64,000 nucleotides of DNA from assembly GCA_000002445.1 (NCBI GenBank), contig CM000208.1, positions 960,001-1,024,000 of the forward strand, in the 5' to 3' direction. Each line of letters opens with the position of its first letter. Positions within the stretch are counted from its first letter, which is position 1. The stretch is from Trypanosoma brucei (taxonomy: Eukaryota). The notes below the pieces were generated by a model. It was not told the DNA's origin, searched no databases, and was given only the letters and a program-made list of their open reading frames with translations. This document shows positions 36,931-63,480 of this stretch, in pieces. A program made the position numbers and the translations under genes.

Positions 36931-37281
36931 CTCTCTTTTTTTTTCAATTCCAATCAACTTCACCAACGGTTGTTCCACCGTGGGGGAATAATGGAGGTTT
37001 TAGGTATAATACCAACGTAATCTGCACACTTGCTCGAGCGTATCCCTCTTCGACAGTAGATGGGTAAGAGGAAAAAGACACTCCACCAACGAACCAAACA
37101 CGGTGAATGAACCTACAATGTACAATATTAAGGTATAGAAGAGAAAGAAGTAAGGTTTTTCTTTTTTAAAAAAGTATACTAACATTTTTTTAGGACGGCA
37201 AAACGTCGCGAATGAATTAGCAGCAATGGGAAATAGAAAAGGCAGCAAGTCAAATCAATGTACACGAACCGAGTACCTCAT

Positions 37282-42786: not shown

Positions 42787-43392
42787 TGCAAGCAATAAAT
42801 TACTCCCTCTTGATCCGGAATGTAGTTAAGCCTTCAGGGGTTTACGAAACACGTTTTTTATGATTAATATCAGTTAATTATGATGTTTTTTCTCCTTTTT
42901 TTACTTTCTATTTTCGCTCCTTTATGAGCGTATAAAGTTGTTGAACCCGTTACCTACGTGCCATTTGCGTTTAAGCACGACGCGAAGATTGTTGAATTGT
43001 AATTGAGAGAAGCATAAATAACGAAGGTGATGTTGAGGGTGCATGGTTTCATATGGAGCAAGGAGAAAGAAGCAAAGTGAAGATGTTCACGAAAAAAAGG
43101 AGTGGAATGCTCAGTGGGTGAGCGAAGCGGTGAACCAATCACAACTTGTTGATCTATCAAAAAGCACTCACTCCTAGTGAATTTACATTTCCTCCATGCC
43201 CACGAACATGAGGTATAACTCAACATTTCAGATTCTTCCGGAAGATCACAAAACACCAAGAAGAATACAAAAGGTAGTCGAAATGCGGTATAAATGAGGG
43301 GAGGTTCGAAGAAAATTCCGAAAAGGGGCGACAGCGCACTAAGGTAAGTAAAACCTCCTTCTATTCTTTAGGAAACACGACCCCCTCCTTAG

Positions 43393-46300
43393 TCACTCCA
43401 CCGGTGCTGTGCCATTGAAACTTGCGGTTTCATCAGCGGTAGGCCTCTCACTCCCTTCGCAGAGAGGATCATCCACTGGCGTTCCCCCGAAACCGCATGT
43501 GGTACCTGCAGCTTTTGAGTACTGCACAAGCGATGCCAACTGCCGCTGCCGGCGCGAAACCTCCAATAGGAGAAGCTGTTGGACAACCCCCGCGACATCA
43601 GAAAATTTGAAAAACATGCGAAGCTGTTCAATTGGAGAGTCGCCCACCGTCAAATTGTGGGAACCTGCAGGAGCATCAATCACGTTTGCCCCTCCACCGA
43701 TGCGGTCACCGGAAAAGGCAGAATCTGCCTTAAAGTTTACTTTCCCAGTATCTTTCATGGAATGCCGACAATGTTTCAGAAATCTCCGCGGCGGTTGTAG
43801 CACGACTGGTAACCAACGCGACGTGGGAAACAAGCTTGTGCCACCTGAGAACAAAGCAAGGTTGCGCTGCTGATTGACAGCTTCACCAAGTTTTGACCCC
43901 AACATCATAACATTTCCAGCAGCGCCGGTTCTTGCATCAGTAAGACCACACTCTGCTGCGAGCGAAGACGCTGTCACTGCATGTGACGTACCCCAGTTAT
44001 AGGGTGATCGATGCAACGACATCTTGTTCACGCTAGGTTCATCAGCGTCAATCATTTCCTTGTTTTCAGCCAGTCGCAAAAAAGTCATCTGTTGCACCCC
44101 TGGCTCGCCGGTGCAGGTGCTAAGAGACAAAAATACAGGTGTCACTCCAGATGCCCTCTCCCTTATGAAGTCGTTCACGTCACGTAGTTGAAGGTATTGA
44201 ACAACTCTACCGTCCTGCATCTCGGAGAAAAAAAGCGGGGCAATGACCGTTGGGGGGGAGGAGTCCTGTGGAAAATAGGACTGTGCGTCGAACACATCTA
44301 CGAGTTGTGGGTGTTCCCTCGGTTGGACATTTGCCGCATTTTTAAGCAGGTTGTCATATTGGGTGCGTTGGCCCCATATGGGGGTAGCTGAGCCAGGCAA
44401 CTTGGCGTCAGACGCACTCGGAGGTTCGCTGCACCTCTTGCTTTCCTGGGCGGCAGACTTAAGTAGGCTCATAGACAGCAAGTTGTTGGCAATAACAAAC
44501 TCCTCGGCTATTTCACGCAGTCGGTTGGTTAAAGGGGGGCACTTTCCACTGATGCGGTTCCGTCTGTCCTCTTCTTCCGCTTCAATCTCCTCCCGGCGCA
44601 TTGCCTGCCACCGCGCCTTCGTTACCTTATGTGGTGTATACATCGGAAGGACAAGTTGCCTGAGTAGGTGTTCCAGCGTGTACCCTCGAATGCTTGACTG
44701 CACAGGACCTGAAGAGTAAAGATGTTTGACTTCGGTCAGGTGCTGTCGTCCATCCACTAACCGCAACCCACCAAGGGCTACGTCAAATACAGGAAAGCCC
44801 TCACCCACAGCCATCGACATCACCGACGATCTGTTCCGCAACCCCGCTTCCGCAGGTTCTACAATAACAACACCAGACTCGTGGAGTATGCGCACGGATG
44901 TCTCGCTTCGGCGAGTGAAAAGAGTCTCAAGAAAAGGTGTGACTGTACCGCGCATTCCACGGTATATGACGCGCCGCCGTAGCACCGTTCCATCGCCAAA
45001 CAACACGTAAAACCGGTCATATGGTTTGGGGTCGTTCGTGGGAGCTGGATCACGAGCAAACGAAGCGACATAAGAGGAATTTGCATTTTCTTCGGCACCT
45101 TGAGAAAGGGGAGACAAAAGCCCCCTATTGTTGTTCCCATCGTGCGAAACATCTTTATCGTTCAGTTGCGACGAAACCTTGGGGTTATCACCCACTCCGA
45201 AAGATACCTCCGCACGGGAAGCCCGGGAAGCTTGGTTATCGACGGGTTTATAAAGTGGCGCACAAAGGAACACACGCGGAAAAAAGGGGCCTTCCACACA
45301 GTACTGCACATCCGCATCGCATGAGCTTTGTACGGCGGCTGCGTCCTCCAGTAATGGGGCCAGTGGGACGGGAAGATGCTCATCTGCCTCATGCAGAAGA
45401 CCACCTAAGAGACTAGTGATGCACGTTCCATCAACGTGGAGCGCAACGCGAGCGAGTACCATTTCATCGAAACCACCACCACACCCGTGCTTTTGATCCG
45501 TTTTTCCTGCCCCGAGACTTGCAGCATTGCCCTCCTTCTTGGTTTTATGGGGAAAATACTTATTGTACGTAACCACAATAAGTCCATCGGCCCGCGACAT
45601 TGTGTGGCAGTGGTTGCAACGATCATACGTCATACAGGACTCCACGTTTCCTGATGGAACGGGATGAAGGCTCCCGGTCTCTTCCAGACCTACTTCCCGC
45701 ACATAGCACAGTCCCTCGGGTGTTAATACTGTTTCAACAACGGGTTGCGCACCATCTTCTTGAGTGCTTGAAACCCCACCTACAGGGGCCACGGGATAAC
45801 CTGTTACTATCATACCGTCTGGGTACAGCATCTGGGTCGTGCCGGAGTGAAAGTATCGGCACACAATCCCTGAGTCTTCAATAAGAGCCCGACGAACCTC
45901 CACCTCCATGGATCTCTGCAATACCACTTCCTCTCCTACACAATGCGCACAACGTACTAATTCTGGAACGGGATGTCGCATGGAATCGTGTCTCGACAAC
46001 CACAGGATTCCTTCGTGCTCTTCGTTATGAACGCTCACACCACCAGCAGAAACTGTGATTGCCACCGCTGGAACACCATGCTGTACTGGAAGTTGAACGG
46101 CAGTCTCATGCGGGTGTTTTGGATCTTTCACAGCAGGCCACAATAGGATAGAGCCACTATCATCAACAGGGAAAGTTCGTGTCATCCCTTCCTGGGCATT
46201 CTTACCAGAGTTTGACCCGTCGTCTTCACCTCTGCTTCTACTCCTGGGCCTACGGGACAAGCGGCGCTTAAGTGCTTGTGTTGGACCCTGAGCTGAACCC

Positions 46301-49300
46301 GGCAAACCGCCGCGCACTCGGCCAGAAAAAGGACCTATGCTCTTCCGCGATTGCAACCTTCCCCGTCCATTCAGTGCGTCGCGCGGAGTGAAGCCACTTC
46401 CATAGGCGCCATCTTTGTCGCTGTTAATAGTAGAATTTGCATATTGGAGTCTGTAACGAGGTCGTGCAGAGCAGGTAAGGACCACACCGTCATCAAAGGC
46501 CGCAGTGAAGTACATAAGCTCTTCCTCCTTTCGCCGTGACGATGGAGGTGCAGAGGAGCATGCAGAAAAGCCTCCGTCCACCGCTTCGCCAGCCGTTTGA
46601 GCGGAAGTAGACGTGGCATTAGTGACAGCGGGAGAGGAAGAGGGGGCAGCGCGGGGTGGTGGTGCAATATAATAGTGGAGCGTGCATATTATTTCACTCG
46701 CCCTCACATAACGGCAAATTCGGCTACGGTCAGTCGTAATCACTTCAATAATACTATTGTCGTGCGGGTACAAAGTGTGTCGTCCTTCGAGTGCTGTTTG
46801 GATGTCCCCTTCAGAGCGCCAAACACCCCTTCCCCTCACTACTTCCTCAAGTTGAGGAATAATAAATTGTGGAGAATTGCGTAGATCCCGCAGGAGTTGC
46901 ACCCTTATAGCATCACCCAGATCTCCTCCAAAACACTGCGTCGCACCAAACGTCTTGGCGATGTCCGTTGGTGCGCTCGACAGCGTTGGTAAGGTTAAAG
47001 TTGTACCGAGACACACCGACTCAGAAGAAAGTAACTCGTTAAACTGGTCGAGTGACGGCACACCAGAAATATAGTGACACCATACACGTATCGATTGCCG
47101 CTGTATTGGTGTGACCACCCCACCCGCCATAACGGCAACAACCTTATCCCGTACACGTGTGTTTTCCGCTCCCACAGAACGGAACATCGCAAGATTACCG
47201 TATATTGACTCGAGGGGGTCCGGTACTACGCACCGCACCAATCGACAGAGGTGTTCACCAAAGCGGGAGGAGAAGTCATTGAGGCACCGGATCGCAGCAC
47301 GTTTGCTAATGTTCTCCTCAAGCGGTCGCGCGTTCGGATAAAACCCCTCGTGTAACGACGGTGTTAACGCGGTGATAGACACACTGTTGGATTGCCTGCC
47401 TTCTGGAAAGTCGGCGTTTACAACTTTGTCACTAACGCCAATTGCAGCTGCTATCATTTCCAGAAAAAAGCACTGAAGAACGTGCGTCCGTTCCCGGGGT
47501 GTCAAACTCCGTTCTACACTTCGCTGCAGTTTTTCGTCGACAAAGGGAGCCCTAAGAGCGGCAGCCTCCGCTGCCTCTCTTATCTTGTCAAACGTAACTC
47601 CAGATGTCCTGTCTGTGCACGAGAACAGCTTTTCTACGCGCTCCAATAAACGTAAGTCCACACCCTCCTCCGCCATGTTCAAGACAAGTCCGTTCATTGG
47701 TTCTTCCAGCAGCTCCTGCGCGCGCATCGAACTGTATGACCTTCCCCCGTTTGGCAAAGAGAGAGTCATTGTAATTGGATTATCTTGCTTGAACACTCCA
47801 AGCCCCTTTTGGACAAACTCCCGCGTTAAGCAGCGCACATCATTTTGCGTGGGTTGTGGGAAGGGGCGATCCATTGTGTGGTCCAGAGGTAGCATTACCG
47901 CGGGATCGTTGCCCTCGTGCTGAGTTGAAGCGAGTTCACTGGGGGAGTGTGGGATCGGTGATGGTGACTGGGTTTGTTTTCGCAACCTTCCTGGAGACTT
48001 TCGGTCCTTCAGCTTCGACTCACTGGCATGACGCTTCGTTGCAGCATCCACAGCTGCTTCTATCTGCTCATTTAGAGGCTCGTCATCTATACCTTCGTGT
48101 CGTGGAAACGCGGCCGACAATATGGGTTCCTTTTCCGCATAACAGTATATAGACTGGGGTAGCAGAGAATGAGTGCCAGAGAGTTCCTTCCCAGTACTGA
48201 CAGTTTCACTATGAGGCGTGCTATGCACCTCATGCACTGGAGTTAGTTCTTCTCGTGGCACAGGACGCACATATTTGGGAGTTTGCCTCCTAGCAAGGGA
48301 CACAGTAACCTGTGCAGCGAGCGCGTGCAGAGCAGATACACATGTCCACTGATCACAGACCTTCCTCCCCTGAAGGTAGTGCGACCAGTCCCTAAAAGGG
48401 AATGAGGGTTCACAACCTGGACACACAGATCGGGGAGCGTCCTCACAAAAGTGTGGGCGACCCCTCTCCACAGATCCCCCAGAAGGCGGAGGGAACGTAG
48501 CAGCCTCCTCCTGTGGTAGAGGTAAAGGTAAATTCGGGCATTGATACGTCGCTTTAGTGGACATACATCTAGTGTAATATGTCATATTACTCACCACGTT
48601 GAACACAGTGGGAAGCACAGAATCTAAACATCGCCTGATCACAGAACTCTTATCATCCCCACGATTTTCTACTATTTCACGCATACATAGTGCGGTGTAC
48701 GCATGCAAAGCAGCATCGGTATCAGTTATCGTTGTAGCAAGCCCCAGTCGCGCGCACTGTTCAATTACTCCAGCAAATGAACTGCCACTGGGAGCCACTG
48801 TATTAACGTCGCCTTCCTTACTCCCACTAGCCGTCTGCCCCGCTGCCGCGTCACGGCCCGGTTGCCGTTTAGAGGAAGGTGTTGTCCGCTGTCGCTGACT
48901 AGAGGGAGTACAACTCACACCCGCTACTTGAGCCGTACCGCCCGGAGAAGTGGGTGCATCGACGAAGTTCACAACCAAACGAATATCGAGCCGCTTGGGT
49001 GGGGCGTCACACCCGTGTCCTAACAAGAACGCTAACACGCGTGGATCTCGAATGGGAACAACAACGGGGAGAATACTCATCTCTTTTGCGTGCGCCTCCA
49101 TACGCGTAAGCGGTACCGGTGTAGCCACCCTTGGTGCTTCCTTTAACCCTTCACTGGCATCGCCGCGCAGCGACACTGAACGAGCCCTGGAGACTCTTCG
49201 AGATACGGGCGCAGTTCTACCCTCCATTTCATCCACAATTGTACACAAAGCCTTTTGAATGGTCGCAACAGCATCTGCAGGATTTGGATTGCGCGGTAAT

Positions 49301-49836
49301 GCAGCTGCCAGGACGGCATCCTCTTCTGGGCGATCGAATGACGGTATATGATGCACAATCACCAGTGGTCGTGTACAACGACGATTATGCACTACCGAAT
49401 ACCACGAGTTACCATCGCCTGCCTGCGTCTTTTGAGATCCCTCCGTTGGAGAACTAAGTGCAGTTGCACCCTTGGCTCCCGATGCCCCGGCCGCTTTTCC
49501 ACCTTTGGGTTTCCCACCTTTTGCTGGAGCAGCCCCAATGGCGGTTGCCGGAACATTTGTCCCCCTTTTTGCACTCATATACTTCATGAATGCTGCTTGC
49601 ACTTCTGCCACGACGCCATTTTGATCAAAGTCATCAGTTTCCTGCTCATCTAATACAACCCGCGACGACCTTGTGGCTACACTGTCAGCGTCACTGCTGT
49701 CCCTTGGTGGAGTAAAATGACAGGCAGCCTTTGAAAGAATGAAACCGATGTACCTGATATCGGCCGCGTCGCCGTCACTGCACACGAGGATAAGGCGGCA
49801 ACGCCGTTGCTTCTGTGCTTCCGCCTGTGAAGACAT
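43393..49836 (-). CDS. Hypothetical protein, 2147 aa, no recognisable domain
   Basis: ATG confirmed (cat 49834-49836). 6.4-kb uninterrupted ORF with coding composition. Gly/Lys/Ala-rich segment near the N-terminus. Confidence 0.5.
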   Translation of the reverse strand: MSSQAEAQKQRRCRLILVCSDGDAADIRYIGFILSKAACHFTPPRDSSDADSVATRSSRVVLDEQETDDFDQNGVVAEVQAAFMKYMSAKRGTNVPATAIGAAPAKGGKPKGGKAAGASGAKGATALSSPTEGSQKTQAGDGNSWYSVVHNRRCTRPLVIVHHIPSFDRPEEDAVLAAALPRNPNPADAVATIQKALCTIVDEMEGRTAPVSRRVSRARSVSLRGDASEGLKEAPRVATPVPLTRMEAHAKEMSILPVVVPIRDPRVLAFLLGHGCDAPPKRLDIRLVVNFVDAPTSPGGTAQVAGVSCTPSSQRQRTTPSSKRQPGRDAAAGQTASGSKEGDVNTVAPSGSSFAGVIEQCARLGLATTITDTDAALHAYTALCMREIVENRGDDKSSVIRRCLDSVLPTVFNVVSNMTYYTRCMSTKATYQCPNLPLPLPQEEAATFPPPSGGSVERGRPHFCEDAPRSVCPGCEPSFPFRDWSHYLQGRKVCDQWTCVSALHALAAQVTVSLARRQTPKYVRPVPREELTPVHEVHSTPHSETVSTGKELSGTHSLLPQSIYCYAEKEPILSAAFPRHEGIDDEPLNEQIEAAVDAATKRHASESKLKDRKSPGRLRKQTQSPSPIPHSPSELASTQHEGNDPAVMLPLDHTMDRPFPQPTQNDVRCLTREFVQKGLGVFKQDNPITMTLSLPNGGRSYSSMRAQELLEEPMNGLVLNMAEEGVDLRLLERVEKLFSCTDRTSGVTFDKIREAAEAAALRAPFVDEKLQRSVERSLTPRERTHVLQCFFLEMIAAAIGVSDKVVNADFPEGRQSNSVSITALTPSLHEGFYPNARPLEENISKRAAIRCLNDFSSRFGEHLCRLVRCVVPDPLESIYGNLAMFRSVGAENTRVRDKVVAVMAGGVVTPIQRQSIRVWCHYISGVPSLDQFNELLSSESVCLGTTLTLPTLSSAPTDIAKTFGATQCFGGDLGDAIRVQLLRDLRNSPQFIIPQLEEVVRGRGVWRSEGDIQTALEGRHTLYPHDNSIIEVITTDRSRICRYVRASEIICTLHYYIAPPPRAAPSSSPAVTNATSTSAQTAGEAVDGGFSACSSAPPSSRRKEEELMYFTAAFDDGVVLTCSARPRYRLQYANSTINSDKDGAYGSGFTPRDALNGRGRLQSRKSIGPFSGRVRGGLPGSAQGPTQALKRRLSRRPRSRSRGEDDGSNSGKNAQEGMTRTFPVDDSGSILLWPAVKDPKHPHETAVQLPVQHGVPAVAITVSAGGVSVHNEEHEGILWLSRHDSMRHPVPELVRCAHCVGEEVVLQRSMEVEVRRALIEDSGIVCRYFHSGTTQMLYPDGMIVTGYPVAPVGGVSSTQEDGAQPVVETVLTPEGLCYVREVGLEETGSLHPVPSGNVESCMTYDRCNHCHTMSRADGLIVVTYNKYFPHKTKKEGNAASLGAGKTDQKHGCGGGFDEMVLARVALHVDGTCITSLLGGLLHEADEHLPVPLAPLLEDAAAVQSSCDADVQYCVEGPFFPRVFLCAPLYKPVDNQASRASRAEVSFGVGDNPKVSSQLNDKDVSHDGNNNRGLLSPLSQGAEENANSSYVASFARDPAPTNDPKPYDRFYVLFGDGTVLRRRVIYRGMRGTVTPFLETLFTRRSETSVRILHESGVVIVEPAEAGLRNRSSVMSMAVGEGFPVFDVALGGLRLVDGRQHLTEVKHLYSSGPVQSSIRGYTLEHLLRQLVLPMYTPHKVTKARWQAMRREEIEAEEEDRRNRISGKCPPLTNRLREIAEEFVIANNLLSMSLLKSAAQESKRCSEPPSASDAKLPGSATPIWGQRTQYDNLLKNAANVQPREHPQLVDVFDAQSYFPQDSSPPTVIAPLFFSEMQDGRVVQYLQLRDVNDFIRERASGVTPVFLSLSTCTGEPGVQQMTFLRLAENKEMIDADEPSVNKMSLHRSPYNWGTSHAVTASSLAAECGLTDARTGAAGNVMMLGSKLGEAVNQQRNLALFSGGTSLFPTSRWLPVVLQPPRRFLKHCRHSMKDTGKVNFKADSAFSGDRIGGGANVIDAPAGSHNLTVGDSPIEQLRMFFKFSDVAGVVQQLLLLEVSRRQRQLASLVQYSKAAGTTCGFGGTPVDDPLCEGSERPTADETASFNGTAPVE

Positions 49837-51892: not shown

Positions 51893-53803
51893 TCAGTCAC
51901 TCATAGGAAATTGAGCGCACGCCGCGTCACGGAGGTACATCCACAGTGCTAAGGACATGATGTGTTCCTCCTCCTCCACATCAAACACGGAGCCAACACT
52001 GTCAGTAACATTGTACGATGGAACATGAAGCATGGATGCGGATTTTTCTCCTTTTTCGGTGATAGTCGTATTTTTCACATGAGAACCCGGAGTATTATAC
52101 GTCGCACGAAAAGGGAACCTCACACCGCTCTTTTGTTCAATTACTTCAACTATGGACGTGGCTACGTGCGTAGAGAAGGTAGCGAGTGACTTGGCTTCAC
52201 TTTTACTCAAGGGGTCACGCATAACGCTGGTGGCACTGAGAAGGACAGCGAGAGAAGCATTCATGGCTGCATCGTAAACTTTTACGTCTGCCGAGCCACT
52301 ATCAGTTACGTGTGCAGTCAAAGAGCTCATCACGCGTTCGTCAGAATTATAAAATGTGTCAACTACATCCAAGGAATGTGACAAACTCAAATATGCGTCC
52401 CGAACAACATGTGTTACGTGGATAGTGGCCACTCGTAGCACGTGCCACTGCAAATCTGGGGACAACACTATCCGCTTAGCCACACCAGTTGCCACAGAAG
52501 CCGAAAAAAAACGATAGCTGCACCACAGTTCACCAACCCGCCGTAGTTCCGCGGCCGTGTGAGCATAACGAGGCGTTGTTTGCGGCACTGCTATTGAAAA
52601 GTCCCATTCTTTCCGACCGAGTTGAACCGTCGCCATGTGAACGCGCATGAACCACCAGTAGTACGCGTACTGTCCTTGGTTGTGCTGTAGAAGACCAAAC
52701 TTCATTGTAGCACCGGTACACACGACTTCAGAGTAGAGGGGTTGTGTCCCTCCATTTTTCTCTACACTTGTCCCTTTGATTTCCACGGCTTCAATCGGAG
52801 GAGTACTCTCTTTGAATTCATCAACTGCTCCCTGCTGCTCCTTTACAGTAACCAGGGGAAACAACGGAGCACCTTCACAGAAAATTTTGTGAGAGACTGA
52901 TGCACAGTGCTCAATGAAATCGGATGCTGTACCGAACCAACCGCCATTATGTATTGCTGGGAAAAAACAAGAAAGGGCTTCTTCATCCCCACACTTGATG
53001 GCACTCGTCGGGAATAATGAAGAAAGGGAAGCCACAGCAAAGCTACAAGTGGAAGTCGCACAATTCGAGTCCATGGTGCTCTGATGTGATTGAGTTGAGC
53101 CAACAGACGGTGGTCCGAGGTTAAGGGTATGACGACCAAATATATCGTGCACGCGTGGGGGGAGCAAAGGCAGAGCGACATGAAACCGCTGATTTTGCAC
53201 ACAATCGGGTAAAAAGGAAGAAGACAGCTTGGGTTCCTTCGAACTCTCCCTCCCACGCACCTGACGTGTTGGAGGAAATGAAGTCTTTTGGAATGGTAAA
53301 CTCGCCTCCTCCGCCGTAGGACCGGACGCACGCACCCCTGCAGCCGCTGTTTCCCTGGCCAGACTCATCTTACGGAGGAACGAAACAAAGTAGTCCCCGA
53401 ATTTCCTTGCTTTAGATTTTCTCTGTTGTTCTGTTTTCCTATTCATAGCAACCGTCTTTTTCTTAGAATCTCCAACGTTCTTCGATCCGCGGGATGTGTC
53501 TCTGCCACCAACATGTGTACTTTTGACCACTGACGAAACACTCGTACTCCCTTTCGCTCCATCGGTATTTTTGTTTCTTTTTCCACACACCTTGCTTTTT
53601 ACGGTTCGCTCACATTTATTCCCGACATGGACACGACGCCTTCTCTTAGTCGTTTTTGTACATGATATCACGCATGCCATTTTATTCAGAGCAACTTTAA
53701 CACTGTCTGCACGTTCCGCTCCACCTGCACAAGCCAGTTCCGCCACCTGCCGTGTGGAGGATGCCACTTCCTCCGAAAGATGGTGCCCCTTCACTTCTGT
53801 CAT
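51893..53803 (-). CDS. Hypothetical protein with basic N-terminal (NLS-like) region, 636 aa
   Basis: GTG at 53810-53812; first ATG is M4 (cat 53801-53803). Long ORF in the transcription-unit orientation. KTTKRRRRVHVGNK basic cluster. No domain recognised. Confidence 0.5.
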   Translation of the reverse strand: MTEVKGHHLSEEVASSTRQVAELACAGGAERADSVKVALNKMACVISCTKTTKRRRRVHVGNKCERTVKSKVCGKRNKNTDGAKGSTSVSSVVKSTHVGGRDTSRGSKNVGDSKKKTVAMNRKTEQQRKSKARKFGDYFVSFLRKMSLARETAAAGVRASGPTAEEASLPFQKTSFPPTRQVRGRESSKEPKLSSSFLPDCVQNQRFHVALPLLPPRVHDIFGRHTLNLGPPSVGSTQSHQSTMDSNCATSTCSFAVASLSSLFPTSAIKCGDEEALSCFFPAIHNGGWFGTASDFIEHCASVSHKIFCEGAPLFPLVTVKEQQGAVDEFKESTPPIEAVEIKGTSVEKNGGTQPLYSEVVCTGATMKFGLLQHNQGQYAYYWWFMRVHMATVQLGRKEWDFSIAVPQTTPRYAHTAAELRRVGELWCSYRFFSASVATGVAKRIVLSPDLQWHVLRVATIHVTHVVRDAYLSLSHSLDVVDTFYNSDERVMSSLTAHVTDSGSADVKVYDAAMNASLAVLLSATSVMRDPLSKSEAKSLATFSTHVATSIVEVIEQKSGVRFPFRATYNTPGSHVKNTTITEKGEKSASMLHVPSYNVTDSVGSVFDVEEEEHIMSLALWMYLRDAACAQFPMSD

Positions 53804-54848
53804 GAAACGCACTTACTTTTCCTAATTTTTCTTACACTAAGAAAAGCAGTAGTCGGTAGCCCCACAGGTTCTTACACCTACGTGTGTAAAGAAGGTAAAA
53901 AATAAAGGAAATAGTAATGATCCTCCTCTGCACTGGACATCGCCAGTAACTTCTCAGATTGTGTGGTAAGAAGAGATAAACAAAAGCAAAGGGGATAACG
54001 TGAGAACGACCAAATACGTCATGAAGTGAATGACGCGTACTAAATTCTGAAAAATTTGGCACATCTCGAATGCACCTACCACCTGATCAGGTGTGGAACC
54101 ACCACAGCGCAACTTTTCCCCCTCTCCTTATCTTCTGTTTCTCCCTGTCACATCCTCTGTATATGGTACAGAACTGTAAATACGAGTACGACTACCCGCT
54201 ACCTCAGTCGCACATCTTTGTCAGTATACAGTTAAATAATCCCCTATTAGGGGAATCTTCAAAGCAAACAAACAAACCAATGAACATCATCAGAAGTGCC
54301 GGGACACGAATGAGCAAAAGAAAGTTGGAGTCGGAGGAAAGTACAAGAACGATCGGCTCTTTGACGGCTATTGGTGGCAAGTCGATGATTCAGCAAATAA
54401 ACTGAAGTGAAAGCTGCGGTGGCATCAGGAAAGCGACAAGCCGCACCTCAGCGAAAGAGTATAAGAGAATGACACTGCGCTAAAGAGTAAAAAGAGCATA
54501 CATTTATTGAGATACATACATATGTATATATCTATATATGCATAAAGAGGGAACGCCCAAGTGCTGAAGGGGAACTGGGGGAGGGACGATTAAAACATCG
54601 CGTTATGCCTTACACATCACCCAAGTCACAACAAAGGCACGCAAAAAAAAAAAACACTTCCTGCTCCCATCTCATAGCGACGGACTAAGAAATCAAACAG
54701 GGGAAGGAACAAACAACAATGCCATTAAACACAAGCTCCGCGTGAGAAGCGCTAATTACGCTTACCAAACTGCATCTGTTCCTTATCACTTTTTTTTCTT
54801 TTTGACTACACATATATCTTCAACCGACTACAGAGGACGGAGATGTTT

Positions 54849-55511
54849 TTACAGTCCCAACTGTGTTTCCAGTTTATACGGATCAGGTGTTTCAGTTTCC
54901 TGCTGTTGCTGGGTGTTACTCATAAGGTCCGGTAACCTCCCACTAGGCATAGCAAGTGCGTCCGACAAATAACTCGAATCCGCTTCATTCCCTGATTGCA
55001 TTGCGAGTGCCTCCAACTCGCCTAACATTTCATCCTCATCGATACTGTCAGGAACATCGTAGGAACGACCCATTGCTTCTTGAACGTACTGCGCATCCTC
55101 ATAGAGGTTAAGCAGTTCATCCTGCAATTTCTCTACATCTGCTACAGACATTTTCTTGAACTCCCGCTTCAGCGTCTTTGTCGCGTCCTTCATGGCATCC
55201 ACCTGCAGTTTGGCATCCTTAACCGACTCGGTAGTAAACTGTAGTTGGTCAATGTTGAATTGCTGCTGCATTAAAACATCTTGCTGATTTTGGTACAGTC
55301 GCTTCTGCTGAAGTAGCTGTATGGCACGTTGCTTGTGCCGCTGCTGCGTGGCGCCTGTAGTCCGCTGGATGCACTCCTTTAGTTTGGCGAGTTCTGCATC
55401 TATTTTACTCACGCGCGCATCCACAGCGTCACAGCGGGCACCGATCTTGACACTCGCGTCCTCAAGTGTTGGTTTCTGTGTGTCCTTTTTCCGACCGAAT
55501 AGACGGTTCAT
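54849..55511 (-). CDS. VPS60: ESCRT-III related protein CHMP5/Vps60 (Snf7 family)
   Basis: ATG confirmed (cat 55509-55511). MNRLFGRKK...LLQQKRLYQNQQD...DAMKDATKTLKREFKKMSVADVEKLQDEL...EAMGRSY aligns with the conserved CHMP5/Vps60 pattern. 220 aa. Confidence 0.8.
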   Translation of the reverse strand: MNRLFGRKKDTQKPTLEDASVKIGARCDAVDARVSKIDAELAKLKECIQRTTGATQQRHKQRAIQLLQQKRLYQNQQDVLMQQQFNIDQLQFTTESVKDAKLQVDAMKDATKTLKREFKKMSVADVEKLQDELLNLYEDAQYVQEAMGRSYDVPDSIDEDEMLGELEALAMQSGNEADSSYLSDALAMPSGRLPDLMSNTQQQQETETPDPYKLETQLGL

Positions 55512-57024: not shown

Positions 57025-60000
57025 CTACATATGACCTCCCATTATGCTTTGCGCCCGTTGTATTGCTGGCAGTTTCGATGGGTTGGTATTGGAACGCAAC
57101 AGCAGCTGTTCTTTTTCTTGCAGTGCCGCGGTTAGCACCGCCGTCATTACGTCCTTCTCTTCCTCCAGTACGGTCATCAAACTTTTTACCTGCGGGGAGG
57201 TGTCGATACTAGGTGTTCTTACATTCCGCGTGACGTTCATGAACGGTGGAATTAAAGCTGGAAGTGTCATGGATGCCACTGAGGAATCCGAGTAAGAAAG
57301 CAACGAGCCCTCGTAAACTGGCTTGCAATTAGGGGGCCGAACGGTGGAGACAATCCCCTTGCCGCCGGTTACCTTGGGTACAGGACAAGTGTTCCAGCTC
57401 ATTAGAGTTTTCATCACTCGCAGCCGCTCCTCCTGCTCAGACTTTCGTTTTGGCTTCTTTGAACTCGATGTGGATGCCCCTCCCACGGTGAAGCAGCTGC
57501 TGTATGTCCTCGTACGTGGGTGATCGCTTGAAGCAACCGGGAAAGGTGATGGCATCTGTCCCCGAATGGGTTGTAAACCCTTTCGCCCCGAAGAGGATCC
57601 GTCGTCACTCCCAGGCCCCAGTAGAGTCATCACGCCGCGCCATTTCTCACGCTCTACATGATCCCTTATCGCCTTGGAGGATGGAACAGCGTTAAACGAA
57701 AATTCATTTTTCACAGGGGAGCCCCCACGGGGACTGCTACCCTTTTTCGCTTGGCTCTTGTGGGTTCCTGCAGCCGGAGAGCAACGGCGCCGAGGAAGTG
57801 GTGCGCAGGTCGCGCCTCTTACAACTATTTCAGGTTGAAGCACCCATGCGTCCACGGTTCCTGCAAGCAGTCCTAAATATACAGAGCTGGGTGGCAAGTT
57901 GCAGTTTGGCGGCATATTCACCACAGTTGTTCCTGTGTCACGGCCCGACCTTTCCGTTGAAGAAGACATCGCTTTCCGCGACACCTGAGGCACGCACACA
58001 ACTGGGCTTTGTTTCTCCTTCTCCTCACTCGCGAAGATTGAAGAGCCGCGGTTGGGTAAGACCAGGGGTGTAGCGAGCATGGACGGGACAACAGGAGCGA
58101 TGCCGGCAGGTCCAAATGCTGGGTTGCAGGAGAATGCGGCCTCCGCGATTCGGTGTGCCGCCGAAAAGGTATCAGATAGTGCCGCAGACTCTTCCCTCAG
58201 TGCGGGTGCTTGTGGAGTACTATGCAGTACAGTTACTCCGTATGCCTCTCGTGGGGTCTCACAAATGGTATCCGTTCGCGTCCTCCTCCGAGCAAAAACG
58301 CCGCGATGTGGAGAAATGAGTGCTGAATCTTTGCGAGAGATAGGCGATGGCACATGTGTTTTGAACTCACGCCCAACAACTTCATCGAACAGGCGCTTAA
58401 GAAGCGCAGGCAAGTCGTGTTCCCCATGGAATTCATCCCTAAAAGCAAGAGCATAGGATGGGGGGTACCCGCTACCACTACCCTGCTGCATATCAGTTTT
58501 TGTGCTCTGATCGGACCAGAAAATTGAGGCACGTGGAGAAATGTCACCGCTCCTCTTGAGCCCAATACGGCTCATTGTCCTCGTCCCAAATAACAGTGCC
58601 CCGTGGGGCGCACTCGGCAGCCCACCACGAAACCTAACTCCCAGCATATCCTCCTTAACGATCTCAGCAGCCCTCGTAATAGCAGCCTCCACCTGTCTGT
58701 TGTCAAACAACTCGCGAACACATGGGAAAAGCCGCTTCTGCACATATTCTTTCCGCACCACATCCAACACTTCAAAAGAGCAGGGGTTATGTTTCAACGA
58801 TGGCATCTTGGGTGGCACCTCACTGTTTCCCCCAAAATAGCCAATACAGCTAACGGTACATTCACTAGGGTTTCCAAAAGAGACAGAGGGTACCAACACA
58901 CTCCACACGTAAACGTAGCCATCGTCGCAGCTTGCGCAAAGAAAGACTGCCGTGTGCCTGTCCACGAAAGGAGCCGTTGCATTAAAGGTATTTACTCTCA
59001 CGCTCTGACCTTCCCCTTTGCTTGCTTCTGTCAGACTCTCAGCGGGAAACGGCGACAACTCCGCTTCGCTTGTGGTAGAGGCCAAAAAAGACGTTTTTCG
59101 TATGAACCGGACGGCTGTCAGATTGTTTTTGTGAGCACGCCAGCGCCGTAGCAATATTACACCTTCATGCATAGAGCCTTCTGTTTCCCACGGCGATGAT
59201 ATAGTCCAATTTATATTACTCACGTCCAGCAAGGCCATATGACCCCTATGATCGGACACAGCAATGTAAACGCCATCACGGCTCACCTCCATCGCGGTGA
59301 TGGCGTCCAATTCGTAGGTGACACGGAACCGAAATGACTCCGCTCGTCTGCGACCGTTCCAAATCTGGATGACTCCGTCATCGCTGCCAGTCACAATATA
59401 ACCGGTCGTGCCAACGGGTACGATATGTGAAACGAAACCGAGGTTTGCAAATTGCTCAGAAAGCAAGAATCCGCAGTCACGCTTGGATGCAGGAAGGAAC
59501 TCATCAAAATCCCGACTAAAAAGCAAAAGTGGCGGCAATTCCTCACTCTTGCGCTGAACACTCTCGCTACCGTCGTCCAACAAAACGTCATACTTGTTCT
59601 CGGCATGGGTATTACTAGGGTTGCTTGGGGCTGTAACCCGAGTCGGTTCATTGCAATTTAGGTAGCGTTCGCGCTTCTGCATGAACTCCCTAGTATAATT
59701 CACCGGATCTTGAACGAGAGGACCTGGAAGTAACGCAACAAGATCTAGCGGCGCCGGCACAACGGTGTTCTCGCACGATGTTTGTACAGACTGACAATCA
59801 CGTGCATCAGTAGTGGCGGGAAATTTAGAGCTTTTTTGACTCGAAGCTCTGGTGCTGGTTCTGGCGCTAGCATCCAAATCTGAAGAGTCGCTGTCACTGT
59901 GAAGTGCATTGGTGGTGGAAGAGCGTTGAGAGACGTGTATTTGCTGTTTGTCGCCCACGAACCTCCGCTTAAAGGACTCGGATACGCTTGCCCTGATGCT

Positions 60001-63000
60001 CCTCTTACCCTCAGACTTATGTTGAGAGGTGTCTGTCAAGCGTGTGCACGGAATCGGGCACTTTGTAACCTCGTCCACAGGCGTTGTGCTGATGCCTCCG
60101 CGATGGCCAACAATAACAATTCCAAGAGTTTCGTAAATAATGGCAGCGGCGACGCCGACGCGATCTGTTATAATCTGGCGATGTGCCTCGATAGTGTTGT
60201 CGCCAAGCGCTGACAACGATTCACTAGACTTACCAGGTAGTAAATACAGAGCGGTGGTACCGTCTAGAGATCTCTCTTTCTCAAAAGTGGCGGAAAGCAG
60301 AGAGACCGACTGCCGTAGCGTCCCCTTTCCCTCCATGACCCCGCAAGCCATGGAAGAAAGTTCGTTAACCCCAGATGGAAATGTAAATGTACGTACTAGA
60401 GTGCCATTGAGGCCGTTGTATTCCTTTATGCATCGGCAATGCTCAAGTGCAACAAAAACATGCGCCGACTCTGTTTGTTCCACCGAAATGCAACAAATTC
60501 CGCCATCAACAACCCACGATCGCTCGACAACAGTTGTTATCTTCCAATGAGCATTGGCGTCGCTAGCCGATGATTCCTCAAGTTGAGGATCGCTCTCGTC
60601 CGGCTGTTGTGACTGCTCTGTATCAGGGGGAAACATAACAGCTGCCTTTCTCACCCCTAATCTCACTTCAGTAACAGCGGGGCGCCACACAATGATAACT
60701 TCTTCGTCAGCACTAAACCAAATGTCCCACTTCCTCTGGTGAACAAGATTCACAACCGGCTTCCGATGGCCAAGGTAACCCGCTGGATAGTCATCCGTCT
60801 GTTTGGGGTTCCAAACCCTTGGATAGTACCCGCCTAGTATAAGACGGTCTTGGACGGCATCGTAGCGAGCACAGAGCATCTCCCCAAAGCGAAGCGAAGC
60901 AGCGCTGTCGTCACTTACAACACAGACGCACTGGTAGGTGTCAACATCAAAGAAGTACAGTACGCGCTTCGAGTCGGCAGCCATCAACATCAGTGGCCGC
61001 AGTGGCGGTTGCATAAACGCCACATCTACTGGATAACCGGATGTTGCAGATTTCCTAAATTCTGACAGCTCCAACCGGTGAAGTGGGCGCGGGGAAGAGG
61101 GCACCCAAAAGATGACTGTACGGTCTAAACTCCCTGTTACTAAAATGGCCCGACCCGCATGAAAAGTAGCGCACGTAATCCGCTTTCTGTGCCCATGGTT
61201 TTGCGATAGCCATAGGCTCGTTGAGCCGGTAGACCCTAGCTTCACGGCTCCTGTGGGGGCAACTGTTTCACCTAATGTCATGAATGGTACTTCCACGCGG
61301 CTCAGGTGGCGTACACCCACTGTGCAGTCGTCGCTAACGGTCATCACAATATCACTTTCTACACTAACGACAATTTTCACAATGGCAGCACGATGTAGCT
61401 TCAGGGTTAACAGGGGTTCGTGCGATTCTGGGGGTTCTAACCGCGTCTCCGTTTGGCCAAATACGTCAAACCAGTGGGCACGCAAAGGATAAAACTGTAG
61501 CACACCAGAACTAAATCCTATAAGCATGAGTGGGCCTGTCGGAAGAAGGGAGGTGGAGCTAAACTTCACGTAATTTGCAAGAGCGACGCAGCGGCTAAAC
61601 CATGCGACACCTTCATCCGTGTAATCGGAAGCACAGTGCCCTGGCGTTGGCTTTCTGTTGCTGCGCTCGCTCCCCACACCTTCGAAAACATGGCCATCCC
61701 CTCTGCTGCCACAGTGAACCCATCTGGTACTTTCAAGAGAGTTTCCCGTATCTTGTGTCGTCTCCGGTGTGACCACTTCCTCCCTCGTCCCACACCGGGG
61801 CCGTTCGCACCTTGTTGCGGGACGAGATCTATAGCCAAGTGAAGAAGCACCACACACGCCAAATCGTGAGAGAAAATCCGTTTTCACCGGTTGAGGTCGC
61901 TCAAGATGCTCGTACGTGGGCGCTATAATGCCAAGGCCAGTGAAATACCGTGAAACATCCGTAAAGAGAATATCCAGTGCGTCGCGGCGGTATGCGCGAA
62001 CCTTATATTCGGGCCGCATCACCCTGCTCGGATCCTCATCCTGGAGTTGTGTAACGTCCACTGTGCACAACAAGTCTAGTGACTCCTCCGGGGTACCTCC
62101 ACGCAAGCAGCTAGGTGTCTTGGGTAGACCGTTTTGAAGTTCCACTGGCAATGTGGGAACCGAATGCCGCCCGAGAAACGTTTTGACAACCTCCGCCGTC
62201 CCAGCACGAACAAGAGTAACGGAACAGTCGATAGTCAACACAACCAACATTTCCACATTGCCTAATGACTGCGGCGAGCACGACATATCAAGAATAGGTA
62301 CACCGGCTGCCAAAAGGTTCCGCTCGTGCACAATAGCGGGTTTGCCCTGTGCGTTGGCTAGTCGTGGATCGGTGCGCCAGAGCTTTACTAGCCCATCCCA
62401 CGCGGCCGTGACATAGCGCCTACCGTGATCGATAAACACGATATGACTAATAGCCTCGGTGTGGTATAAGAAGCGCACTAGCGGGTAACGCTTCTGCCAC
62501 AATGTGGTGTTCGCGGGAACAGTAGTTAAATCTAAGATGCGCCCAACATAGTCTACTGATTTTTCCTTTTCTTCATCGGGAGAAGTCCTGCCAGATTTCC
62601 CCCTCTTCCTACGTGCAGAAGCGTCCCCTTTCACGAGTGACCGCTCGCCACACTCGAGAATGTAGGTGCTCAGTTCGTCCCATGTCACCAAACCATCACC
62701 ATCCGCGTCAATAGTGCGGAAAAGGTTCTCGGCAGCTTCCACGTGGCTCTGGTTCAACCGCTGATACGTCAGGCGGGACAAATTACGATTCCCTGATAAA
62801 AACTGCATGTGGTCTGAGCCCATCCCATGCCAAGTCAGCGCATCGAATCCCTCGACCTGCGGTTGCTTTTGGCTAACAATGGGTGGAAAGAGGGCATCAA
62901 AAAACGGCTCCACAATGTCTCGTTCAAAATCGCCGAGGGCCATACCAGGTGGTGACGTGCTCAAAAGACTTGTAAGGGTACACTTGTTCCGAATCCCAAC

Positions 63001-63480
63001 ATCTGGAGAAAGATCATCAGCACGTGCTTCACTTAAGTTCTTCTGCAACTCAGCACATTGTTGCTTGTACCGAAACATCGCGGCCACCTCTTCCTTGCTG
63101 TTTCGCTCGTACGAGTATGATCCTGCAAAGTCTAGTACCGGGTTACGCTTCATTTGGTGGCGCCATTCGTGCAAATCAAAAGCTAAACGCATCCTCGCTA
63201 ACACGGGAAGGGGAGCTAGCGGTTCAGATAACTTTCGCGTATTGCAAATGTCATCCTCCCGCGCAACAGAACCGGAAAACTCAAACGTACAAGATCCCCT
63301 TTGCGACACGATCTTTGTGTTTGCCTCCTCACGTTTCTTCCTCTCTCTTTCCAAGAGTCTTACATATGCAGAAACCACCTTTCCATCTTCTTTGCCGACT
63401 TCTGGTAAGTTACCCGCAGTCCGCTGCGCGTAGGCAACCGATGTTGCCTCCTCGAATGATATAGAATTTGTAATATCCAT
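57025..63480 (-). CDS. Large WD40-repeat protein with N-terminal EF-hand, 2151 aa
   Basis: TTG at 63502-63504; first ATG is M9 (cat 63478-63480). Canonical EF-hand loop DADGDGLVTWDEL. Multiple WD-like units (e.g. TGSLDRTVIFW, GSDDGVIQIWN, ISVSDDCTVGV). Confidence 0.6.
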   Translation of the reverse strand: MDITNSISFEEATSVAYAQRTAGNLPEVGKEDGKVVSAYVRLLERERKKREEANTKIVSQRGSCTFEFSGSVAREDDICNTRKLSEPLAPLPVLARMRLAFDLHEWRHQMKRNPVLDFAGSYSYERNSKEEVAAMFRYKQQCAELQKNLSEARADDLSPDVGIRNKCTLTSLLSTSPPGMALGDFERDIVEPFFDALFPPIVSQKQPQVEGFDALTWHGMGSDHMQFLSGNRNLSRLTYQRLNQSHVEAAENLFRTIDADGDGLVTWDELSTYILECGERSLVKGDASARRKRGKSGRTSPDEEKEKSVDYVGRILDLTTVPANTTLWQKRYPLVRFLYHTEAISHIVFIDHGRRYVTAAWDGLVKLWRTDPRLANAQGKPAIVHERNLLAAGVPILDMSCSPQSLGNVEMLVVLTIDCSVTLVRAGTAEVVKTFLGRHSVPTLPVELQNGLPKTPSCLRGGTPEESLDLLCTVDVTQLQDEDPSRVMRPEYKVRAYRRDALDILFTDVSRYFTGLGIIAPTYEHLERPQPVKTDFLSRFGVCGASSLGYRSRPATRCERPRCGTREEVVTPETTQDTGNSLESTRWVHCGSRGDGHVFEGVGSERSNRKPTPGHCASDYTDEGVAWFSRCVALANYVKFSSTSLLPTGPLMLIGFSSGVLQFYPLRAHWFDVFGQTETRLEPPESHEPLLTLKLHRAAIVKIVVSVESDIVMTVSDDCTVGVRHLSRVEVPFMTLGETVAPTGAVKLGSTGSTSLWLSQNHGHRKRITCATFHAGRAILVTGSLDRTVIFWVPSSPRPLHRLELSEFRKSATSGYPVDVAFMQPPLRPLMLMAADSKRVLYFFDVDTYQCVCVVSDDSAASLRFGEMLCARYDAVQDRLILGGYYPRVWNPKQTDDYPAGYLGHRKPVVNLVHQRKWDIWFSADEEVIIVWRPAVTEVRLGVRKAAVMFPPDTEQSQQPDESDPQLEESSASDANAHWKITTVVERSWVVDGGICCISVEQTESAHVFVALEHCRCIKEYNGLNGTLVRTFTFPSGVNELSSMACGVMEGKGTLRQSVSLLSATFEKERSLDGTTALYLLPGKSSESLSALGDNTIEAHRQIITDRVGVAAAIIYETLGIVIVGHRGGISTTPVDEVTKCPIPCTRLTDTSQHKSEGKRSIRASVSESFKRRFVGDKQQIHVSQRSSTTNALHSDSDSSDLDASARTSTRASSQKSSKFPATTDARDCQSVQTSCENTVVPAPLDLVALLPGPLVQDPVNYTREFMQKRERYLNCNEPTRVTAPSNPSNTHAENKYDVLLDDGSESVQRKSEELPPLLLFSRDFDEFLPASKRDCGFLLSEQFANLGFVSHIVPVGTTGYIVTGSDDGVIQIWNGRRRAESFRFRVTYELDAITAMEVSRDGVYIAVSDHRGHMALLDVSNINWTISSPWETEGSMHEGVILLRRWRAHKNNLTAVRFIRKTSFLASTTSEAELSPFPAESLTEASKGEGQSVRVNTFNATAPFVDRHTAVFLCASCDDGYVYVWSVLVPSVSFGNPSECTVSCIGYFGGNSEVPPKMPSLKHNPCSFEVLDVVRKEYVQKRLFPCVRELFDNRQVEAAITRAAEIVKEDMLGVRFRGGLPSAPHGALLFGTRTMSRIGLKRSGDISPRASIFWSDQSTKTDMQQGSGSGYPPSYALAFRDEFHGEHDLPALLKRLFDEVVGREFKTHVPSPISRKDSALISPHRGVFARRRTRTDTICETPREAYGVTVLHSTPQAPALREESAALSDTFSAAHRIAEAAFSCNPAFGPAGIAPVVPSMLATPLVLPNRGSSIFASEEKEKQSPVVCVPQVSRKAMSSSTERSGRDTGTTVVNMPPNCNLPPSSVYLGLLAGTVDAWVLQPEIVVRGATCAPLPRRRCSPAAGTHKSQAKKGSSPRGGSPVKNEFSFNAVPSSKAIRDHVEREKWRGVMTLLGPGSDDGSSSGRKGLQPIRGQMPSPFPVASSDHPRTRTYSSCFTVGGASTSSSKKPKRKSEQEERLRVMKTLMSWNTCPVPKVTGGKGIVSTVRPPNCKPVYEGSLLSYSDSSVASMTLPALIPPFMNVTRNVRTPSIDTSPQVKSLMTVLEEEKDVMTAVLTAALQEKEQLLLRSNTNPSKLPAIQRAQSIMGGHM

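Follow-up and report, generated by a model that had tools for sequence, protein, structure and literature searches.

Tb927.10.3870 of Trypanosoma brucei carries an EF-hand region followed by two tandem WD40 beta-propellers, is homologous over this whole module to the axonemal CFAP337/WDR49/WDR64 family, and is located in the distal flagellum in proximity to DRC1. We consider it probable that the protein belongs to the CFAP337 family as a kinetoplastid member that has diverged strongly and grown by insertions, acting as a distal-specific hub beside the N-DRC and the inner dynein arms.

Results

The gene lies in the window, the 64,000-nucleotide stretch of T. brucei DNA analysed here, and sequence comparison showed that its product is identical to XP_822635.1 of T. 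b. brucei TREU927. The gene ID is proven by the agreement of length and mass with a published APEX2 proteomics table, which lists Tb927.10.3870 with a length of 2151 and a molecular weight of 237,132 (237,131 Da computed here). Its neighbours in the same table,.3880 (761 aa) and.3860 (220 aa), support the ID, and AMPK-gamma (.3700), NUP65 (.3810) and PIP5K3 (.3890) provide further anchors nearby. Adjacent to the gene, the window also encodes a UTP20 homologue. Plus-strand antisense ORFs within the gene, taken from the ORF list, were considered as real genes and rejected. The accession numbers of the protein gave no matches in the literature, the TrypTag preprint supplements do not contain Tb927.10.3870, and CFAP337, FAP337 or WDR49 were not found linked to any Tb927 gene in the literature searched; curated orthology databases may already group them.

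Table 1. Features of Tb927.10.3870, with positions in the window
Feature	Residues	Position	Strand	Description
CDS Tb927.10.3870, complete	2151 aa + stop	57025..63480	(-)	ORF list and translation; annotated 'hypothetical protein, conserved'
N-terminal lead	1-128	63097..63480	(-)	partly helical, weakly conserved (conservation profile); outside the family module, hhalign match begins at residue 129
EF-hand pair region	~175-290	62611..62958	(-)	EF-hand 1 degenerate (FERDIVEPFFDALFPP plus insertion), EF-hand 2 canonical
Ca2+-binding loop of EF-hand 2	258-270	62671..62709	(-)	DADGDGLVTWDEL; PS00018 match, predicted Ca2+ site
Beta-propeller 1	~335-940	60661..62478	(-)	two blades (344-437), insertion, then five blades (629-939)
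Small conserved alpha/beta insert between blades 2 and 3	487-538	61867..62022	(-)	VMRPEYKVRAYRR...TYEHLERP; many invariant Trypanosoma alignment columns
Variable, probably disordered insertion in propeller 1	~546-624	61609..61845	(-)	conservation 0.15-0.29; gapped against the family profile
Beta-propeller 2, split by a long insertion	~975-1578	58747..60558	(-)	single collinear hhalign match
Ser/Asp/Thr-rich insertion in propeller 2	~1150-1307	59560..60033	(-)	conservation 0.14-0.22; S 15.5%; essentially unaligned to the family template
C-terminal extension	1579-2151	57028..58746	(-)	S/P/R/A-rich; conservation 0.14-0.33; beyond the hhalign match
Conserved C-terminal block, predicted amphipathic helix	2098-2130	57091..57189	(-)	VKSLMTVLEEEKDVMTAVLTAALQEKEQLLLRS; alignment columns ~2350-2385

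An earlier note on this DNA had described a 2151-residue protein combining an EF-hand with multiple WD40 units and placed a canonical Ca2+-binding loop in its N-terminal third. Both statements hold on ORF translation, PS00018, Pfam WD40 and hhalign, the loop being that of EF-hand 2 (Table 1). This 12-residue loop has the canonical ligands at positions 1, 3, 5 and 12, Gly at position 6 and a hydrophobic residue at position 8, together with a Trp at position 10 that is typical of the family. In each of the five Trypanosoma orthologues compared, PS00018 matched at the equivalent alignment position; by chance, a match occurs in 0.6% of shuffles. Across 35 family sequences, D258 and W267, numbered D130 and W139 in the query fragment, hardly vary. 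Alignment of the EF-hand pair to family members, whose first loop reads AD.DGGG.LD..EF and whose second loop reads DANANGSVDWDEF, showed that EF-hand 1 of Tb927.10.3870 has lost its loop ligands. In the AlphaFold2 (AF2) model, helices were placed at residues 182-197, 244-257 and 267-286 with block-mean pLDDT values of 67-84. The domain search proposed in the earlier note gave a divided answer, with WD40 above the Pfam threshold and the best EF-hand score below it (17.6 bits against a cutoff of 25.4); bridging homologues exceed the EF-hand_7 cutoff, with 39.6 and 40.8 bits against 30. The loop is conserved in Trypanosoma and Phytomonas sequences and is degenerate in one lineage of homologues (SWRDNNRVTWDEF), and the Leishmaniinae orthologues have no EF-hand, their proteins beginning downstream of the EF region. 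From this degeneration and absence we argue that the core function does not require Ca2+ sensing.

The WD40 blades of Tb927.10.3870 span residues ~340-1580, with repeats above the Pfam threshold (including a stretch at residues 1361-1400) and a predicted seven-bladed propeller fold. AF2 gave a pLDDT of 35 from a five-sequence alignment and a usable model only with 30 more homologues added; in this model propeller 1 is complete and propeller 2 is begun, with at least three blades of its front part at residues 978-1134. The alpha/beta insert of propeller 1 was modelled with block-mean pLDDT values of 87-92 over most of its length and has a recognisable counterpart in the alignment with the bodonid-like homologues P0024-26, and the variable insertion that follows has a pLDDT below 50 (model residues 418-496). 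With the full-length alignment, hhalign matched propeller 2 in two parts, residues 991-1148 to template 568-698 and residues 1308-1578 to template 710-902. A three-propeller architecture was rejected, as hhalign shows two: what looks like a third WD region (1310-1578) belongs to propeller 2 and forms its back half, which the insertion has displaced. The C-terminal extension has no Pfam match and no recognisable domain, is missing from canonical CFAP337-family members, and holds at least 7 of the 13 substitutions between brucei and gambiense in 27% of the length. Residues 2098-2130 are the sole conserved block in this tail across four full-length orthologues, and their sequence suggests a helix or coiled coil. 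The earlier note had named a degenerate EF loop that does not score in a profile search, together with a lack of predicted propeller folds, as refuting its reading. Neither applies: across Trypanosoma the loop keeps its canonical form, and propellers are predicted.

To place the protein in a family, we relied on collinearity and on the scores of single stretches, because repeated matches add up and make whole-sequence scores a poor discriminator. Residues 129-1578 are collinear with a euglenozoan EF-hand plus two-propeller family (hhalign, Tb 129-1578 against template 15-902, 879 columns, probability 100%, E 3.8e-57), and a further profile-profile match to this family gave an E of 1.7e-62 over 620 columns. 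Diplonemid and euglenid homologues of the euglenozoan family in turn match 8TID chain Z and 9FQR chain No collinearly. The link of Tb927.10.3870 to solved CFAP337/WDR64 is thus transitive, since the similarity runs through euglenozoan intermediates. Tb927.10.3870 has the hallmarks of the family, namely an N-terminal EF-hand pair with a second loop of the form D-x-N/D-x-N/D-G-x-V/I-x-W-x-E-F/L and two tandem WD40 propellers right after the EF-hands, with homology over the whole module and its order kept. Direct PDB searches, made with the protein and with a Trypanosoma-only five-sequence profile, returned only generic WD40 chains among the best 60 matches listed, with no direct match to the solved axoneme chains, which include no trypanosome chain of the CFAP337 family. 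When a profile of the N-terminal module was searched against the PDB, idealised WD40 repeat proteins dominated the matches listed, and in fold searches CFAP337 and other tandem-propeller proteins were not clearly distinguished. Another axonemal protein that has both WD40 repeats and an EF-hand in some species is CFAP251/WDR66, which sits at the base of radial spoke 3 as part of the calmodulin- and spoke-associated complex. We considered and rejected it as the family of Tb927.10.3870: its EF-hand is C-terminal, so that the domain order is opposite, and it was not among the best PDB matches listed.

The earlier note had also proposed a flagellar or cytoskeletal scaffold resembling cilium proteins, and here the published localisation data agree with the CFAP337-family collinearity. 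In TrypTag, Tb927.10.3870 is among the 17 proteins of the 'Distal' flagellum class, judged 'likely axoneme'. DRC1-APEX2 labelled it in each of 4 replicates, whereas the parental control yielded 0 spectra, and it was found in the detergent-insoluble (pellet) proximity proteome; the tip marker AC1-APEX2 labelled it too. The DRC1p list includes clear non-flagellar proteins, among them the UTP20 homologue encoded next to Tb927.10.3870. Taken together, the TrypTag and APEX2 data describe a stable axonemal component that differs from other family members in its distal-only position.

Discussion

The CFAP337 family includes Chlamydomonas FAP337 (Cre13.g562800), Tetrahymena CFAP337A/B (8TID chain Z, 'EF hand protein'), mammalian WDR49, WDR64 and EFCAB8, and Drosophila WDY, which are axonemal proteins with an EF-hand pair and two WD40 propellers. 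In solved structures they lie on the A-tubule once per 96-nm repeat, atop the CCDC96/CCDC113 coiled coil and just distal to the N-DRC, where they contact CFAP57/CFAP58 and the inner dynein arm stem; bovine sperm WDR64 (9FQR chain No) binds atop the same coiled coil and contacts CFAP299, CFAP57 and CFAP58. Binding to CCDC96/CCDC113 and CFAP57-dependent assembly are known only for the Tetrahymena, Chlamydomonas and bovine sperm members. Tb927.10.3870 shares the collinear architecture of all these proteins, the second EF loop is alike (DVNGDGTMEWEEF in Tetrahymena, 8tid_Z), and both CFAP337 and the trypanosome protein are axonemal and near the N-DRC, the former by solved structure and the latter by DRC1-APEX2 labelling. 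In contrast to CFAP337, which has ~1000-1080 residues, the trypanosome protein is expanded to 2151 by four or five large propeller insertions and a ~570-residue tail, its EF-hand 1 has degenerated, it occurs only in the distal flagellum, and its sequence similarity is detectable only via euglenozoan intermediates. Descriptions of the mammalian proteins mention neither such insertions nor a long tail. Their paralogues are used by context, with WDR64 serving sperm and WDR49 epithelial cilia, and a position-specific trypanosome version would be a parallel case, although the mammalian choice is one of cell type and that of Tb927.10.3870 is one of position along a single flagellum.

Could the resemblance to CFAP337 reflect nothing but shared WD repeats, the protein being an ordinary WD40 scaffold in which an EF-hand-like motif arose by chance? 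Against generic WD40 proteins, whole-sequence E-values equal or surpass those against family members, and many unrelated propellers rank similarly in fold searches. However, the alignment runs collinearly from the EF-hand through both propellers, whereas generic WD40 proteins give only numerous short matches that recur at the same profile positions, and just 4 of 106 extend to the EF region as well; the loop and its flanks carry the family signature, including the Trp at position 10, and the experimental flagellar localisation fits the family assignment. We regard this explanation as highly improbable. A kinetoplastid-specific, neofunctionalised paralogue, placed away from the CCDC96/CCDC113 site and building or marking a distal-only structure with its propellers and tail as generic scaffold, deserves more weight but is still rather unlikely. 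Solved and proteomic work places canonical members within the 96-nm repeat, whereas Tb927.10.3870 is distal only, extremely diverged, doubled in size and extended by a new tail of 570 residues, and it is labelled by AC1-APEX2 as well as by DRC1-APEX2. Paralogues are also common in the family (Chlamydomonas Cre07.g313850, Tetrahymena CFAP337A/B, WDR49/WDR64 and at least three in the diplonemid Namystynia); T. brucei may have a second, more canonical CFAP337 paralogue, in which case Tb927.10.3870 could sit elsewhere. Against this, the EF-hand and double-propeller module is retained whole and collinear, its blade motifs are conserved, the protein is insoluble in detergent and close to DRC1, its TrypTag class was judged likely axonemal, and no second trypanosomatid family lineage appeared among the best 150 matches listed of an exhaustive search, most of them without an organism name.

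A separate question is whether the EF-hand is a Ca2+ switch or a structural relic in a constitutive scaffold, with no regulatory role for Ca2+. The latter is a serious alternative that we place somewhat short of even: ligands are kept in just one of the two EF-hands, Pfam EF-hand models stay below their gathering cutoffs, and the loop decays in one lineage and is missing from the Leishmaniinae proteins, which start downstream of the EF region. In the structural and proteomic CFAP337-family literature surveyed, Ca2+ binding is not reported, and the EF-hand has no demonstrated function in the organisms covered. On the other hand, seven Trypanosoma sequences, Phytomonas and the majority of loop-bearing homologues retain the ligands, Gly6 and the hydrophobic residue at position 8. 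Such retention at overall identities of only about 20-45% points to selection acting on the loop itself, and from the sequence Ca2+ regulation of Tb927.10.3870 is plausible.

Under the favoured assignment to the CFAP337 family, the two propellers of Tb927.10.3870 would serve as a hub for docking and relay, linking the N-DRC neighbourhood to the inner-arm dyneins. Installed only in the distal flagellum, such a hub would contribute to the proximal-distal asymmetry of the axoneme, and the single intact EF-hand 2 could make it Ca2+-responsive. The ~570-residue, probably disordered tail with its conserved, predicted terminal helix appears to be a lineage-specific addition, possibly involved in distal targeting or in contacts with trypanosome-specific structures. 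An axonemal component confined to one part of the flagellum has a parallel in the outer-dynein-arm docking complex, which is reportedly asymmetric between proximal and distal parts of the axoneme of trypanosomatids. This asymmetry has an influence on where beats begin, at the tip or at the base. The proteins are nevertheless unrelated, being a coiled-coil docking complex and a light chain on the outer arms, whereas the CFAP337 family belongs to the inner arms and the N-DRC. It is tempting to speculate that Tb927.10.3870 is a distal-axoneme version of the inner-arm/N-DRC hub whose EF-hand serves as a Ca2+ sensor biasing tip-to-base versus base-to-tip beating, although we think this improbable. 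If true, it would offer a molecular entry point to the Ca2+-dependent wave reversal that has long been observed in trypanosomatid flagella; a paralogue in the proximal part, or a site left empty there, would complete the asymmetry. The series of EF-hands that are conserved in Trypanosoma and Phytomonas, degenerate in one lineage and lost in Leishmaniinae constitutes a natural experiment on the role of the EF-hand. For one of the 17 TrypTag 'Distal' proteins, the CFAP337 assignment gives a specific and testable position, the CCDC96/CCDC113 site by the N-DRC and inner dynein arms, and it suggests that the inner-arm regulatory network, like the outer-arm docking complex, shows proximal-distal asymmetry.

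Gene Identity and Genomic Context

The window lies on chromosome 10 of T. brucei brucei TREU927, and its large open reading frames (ORFs) are all on the minus strand, as expected of a polycistronic unit. The gene ID of the 2151-residue protein was first inferred by gene counting between published anchors (table). In a published mass spectrometry table, Tb927.10.3870 has a length of 2151 and a molecular weight of 237,132, compared with 237,131 Da computed from our translation, and the lengths of the flanking genes match the same table (.3880, 761 aa;.3860, 220 aa), which proves that the protein is Tb927.10.3870. Its translation shows zero differences from XP_822635.1/Q38BL3. Two antisense ORFs within the gene run along the non-coding strand, opposite a minus-strand polycistron, and almost certainly arose by chance.

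The transcription unit contains another large uncharacterised protein, Tb927.10.3820 by gene count, for which no Pfam family reached E <= 0.001. NUP65 and the Snf7/ESCRT-III protein Tb927.10.3860 (length confirmed by the APEX2 table; classed as "points" in TrypTag source data) are ordinary neighbours without a functional link to Tb927.10.3870. The 639-residue GTG-start ORF has no Pfam match, and no gene is called at its place in the T. b. equiperdum annotation (stretch L001, 18629-22169), where the calls just beyond are a ribosomal L18A gene (179 aa) and a 164-residue gene; it may be spurious, or it may be Tb927.10.3850, a "hypothetical protein" in one paper.

Features of Tb927.10.3870 and of its surroundings (coordinates refer to the window unless residues are stated)
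Feature	Position	Strand	Remarks
Target ORF	57025-63480	-	2151 aa, translation
Lead	residues 1-128		conservation weak
Propeller 1	residues ~335-940		seven blades, judged from strand pattern
Alpha/beta insert after blade 2 of propeller 1	residues 487-538; 61867-62022	-	conserved, confident model
Disordered stretch in propeller 1	residues ~546-624
Propeller 2	residues ~975-1578		split by insertion
Ser-rich insertion in propeller 2	residues ~1150-1307
Tail	residues 1579-2151		S/P/R-rich, conservation poor
Conserved amphipathic helix ending tail	residues 2098-2130		predicted from sequence pattern
Antisense ORF	58603-59151	+	182 aa
Antisense ORF	62807-63433	+	208 aa
Anchor AMPK-gamma, Tb927.10.3700			published gene ID
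Anchor NUP65, Tb927.10.3810	40999-42795	-	published gene ID; Nup35-type RRM protein
Anchor PIP5K3, Tb927.10.3890			two genes upstream of target
Tb927.10.3780 (gene count)	21133-24201	-	1022 aa
Tb927.10.3790 (gene count)	25225-36978	-	3917 aa
Tb927.10.3820 (gene count)	43393-49836	-	2147 aa
GTG-start ORF	51893-53812	-	639 aa
Tb927.10.3860	54849-55511	-	220 aa

Domain Architecture

The layout of the protein was derived from alignments and from an AlphaFold2 model of residues 129-1160 (35-sequence alignment, pLDDT 73.8, pTM 0.62). An apparent third WD region was rejected, as the full-length profile-profile alignment identifies it as the back half of propeller 2, which is split by the Ser-rich insertion. 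No Pfam match was found in the tail. The alpha/beta insert between blades 2 and 3 (VMRPEYKVRAYRR...APTYEHLERP) is small and strongly conserved; a counterpart is recognisable in bodonid-like homologues and has diverged in diplonemids, suggesting that it may form a kinetoplastid-specific interaction surface.

The earlier note had proposed an EF-hand combined with WD40 units, and this combination is borne out: the loop DADGDGLVTWDEL (residues 258-270) fits PROSITE PS00018, any match to which occurs in only 0.6% of 20,000 shuffled versions of the protein, and a match is kept at the equivalent aligned position in each of the five Trypanosoma orthologues compared (overall identity 37-44%); Pfam WD40 scores 64.4 bits against a cutoff of 27. 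At the level of Pfam domains, WD40 has three significant stretches, and the EF-hand models match below cutoff (17.6 bits versus 25.4). Rather than the loop unscored in profile searches and the lack of predicted propeller folds that the earlier note had named as refuting its proposal, we found a canonical loop and predicted propellers. Within the EF-hand pair region (residues ~175-290), EF-hand 1 is without its loop and carries an insertion, and EF-hand 2 is canonical.

The EF-hand is kept in seven Trypanosoma sequences, Phytomonas and four further kinetoplastid-like sequences. One lineage (homologue P0021) retains the EF region with a degenerate loop, SWRDNNRVTWDEF. The Leptomonas and Leishmania tarentolae proteins, together with a metagenomic relative (homologues P0019, P0020 and P0023), lack the region and start with the first propeller blade or immediately behind it; judged from these sequences, the Ca2+ motif seems to have been lost in particular lineages, unless start codons are mis-annotated. 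The core function, whatever its nature, would evidently dispense with Ca2+ binding in these lineages.

Relationship to the CFAP337 Family

Direct searches of solved structures gave generic WD40 chains only among the best 60 matches. Residues 85-1160 and four orthologues served as the query of an exhaustive profile search covering 1.84 billion representative proteins. Its matches included trypanosomatid orthologues (T. conorhini, Phytomonas, Leptomonas, Leishmania tarentolae and several kinetoplastid-like sequences) and a second, distinct class, with 27 proteins among the matches listed, whose source-named members are diplonemid (Namystynia, Artemidia), euglenid (Entosiphon) and prokinetoplastid (Papus). 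Generic WD40 proteins place many short repeats on the same profile positions (median best stretch 14.5 bits); the distinct class matches collinearly from the EF-hand segment through the first blades to an extended part of the second WD region (median best stretch 51 bits), and nearly all its proteins have a DANANGSVDWDEF-type loop directly N-terminal to the WD region. Profile-profile comparison gave a probability of 100% (E 1.7e-62, 620 columns), and full-length alignments gave a single collinear match of residues 129-1578 to Entosiphon 15-902 (879 columns, E 3.8e-57).

This bridging class, with members in which the Pfam EF-hand pair model exceeds its cutoff, scores at most 81 bits per stretch against generic propellers. 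It matches Tetrahymena CFAP337 (8TID chain Z, "EF hand protein") in two collinear stretches (55 and 254 bits), the former spanning the EF-hand pair, and bovine sperm WDR64 (9FQR chain No) in one long stretch (profile 314-891; whole chain E 3.9e-86, 293 bits), with per-stretch scores for both chains far above those of any generic propeller. Tb927.10.3870 is therefore very probably a member of the CFAP337 family, its link to characterised members being transitive. T. brucei may also have a second, more canonical paralogue.

Flagellar Localisation and Proposed Role

TrypTag places the protein in the "Distal" flagellum class. It is absent from earlier flagellar proteomes and was detected in the detergent-insoluble DRC1 proximity proteome (PMC8141408). 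In the raw table of that study, it has 14.6-23.8 normalised spectra and 14-22% coverage in four of four DRC1-APEX2 pellets and zero spectra in four of four parental controls, although the list includes non-flagellar proteins such as Tb927.10.3790, here identified as a UTP20 homologue; the tip marker AC1-APEX2 also labels Tb927.10.3870. Tb927.10.3790, a "hypothetical protein, conserved" in that "flagellar" proteome, matches Pfam UTP20 (120 bits) and UTP20_N (64 bits), UTP20 being a protein of the U3 snoRNP/SSU processome, and is likely a nucleolar contaminant. Tb927.10.3780, with no Pfam match, is in the list too; TrypTag assigns it, with three other proteins, to "Middle dorsal", a rare cortical-cytoskeleton subdomain.

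The family member of other organisms is seated on the CCDC96/113 coiled coil, immediately distal to the N-DRC, where it touches the inner-arm dynein d stem as well as CFAP57, CFAP58 and CFAP299; it is lost upon removal of CFAP57 or CCDC96. Whether the trypanosome protein binds at the same site we consider evenly balanced. Chlamydomonas has a compensating paralogue, and its FAP337 is reduced in short axonemes; in mammals WDR64 is found in sperm and WDR49 probably elsewhere; context-specific versions of the hub thus have precedent. We moderately favour a model in which Tb927.10.3870 is a distal-axoneme-specific CFAP337-family hub, whose two propellers would tie the N-DRC/CCDC96-113/CFAP57 network to inner-arm dyneins and so presumably regulate them. 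The single EF-hand could confer Ca2+ sensitivity, a tentative suggestion that we hold as somewhat doubtful, and the disordered tail, a lineage-specific feature, may have a part in targeting or in contacts peculiar to trypanosomes. Of this model, the homology, architecture, localisation and DRC1 proximity rest on data, and the binding site, dynein regulation and Ca2+ binding are inferred.

Public records already contain the protein, an automatic "EF-hand domain-containing" label for it and its TrypTag localisation. In the literature searched, we found no main-text mention of Tb927.10.3870 and no paper that ties any Tb927 gene to CFAP337, FAP337 or WDR49; what is new is its probable place as a very divergent, expanded member of the CFAP337 family. 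It would become far more interesting if it turned out to be the Ca2+ sensor in proximal-distal beat control.
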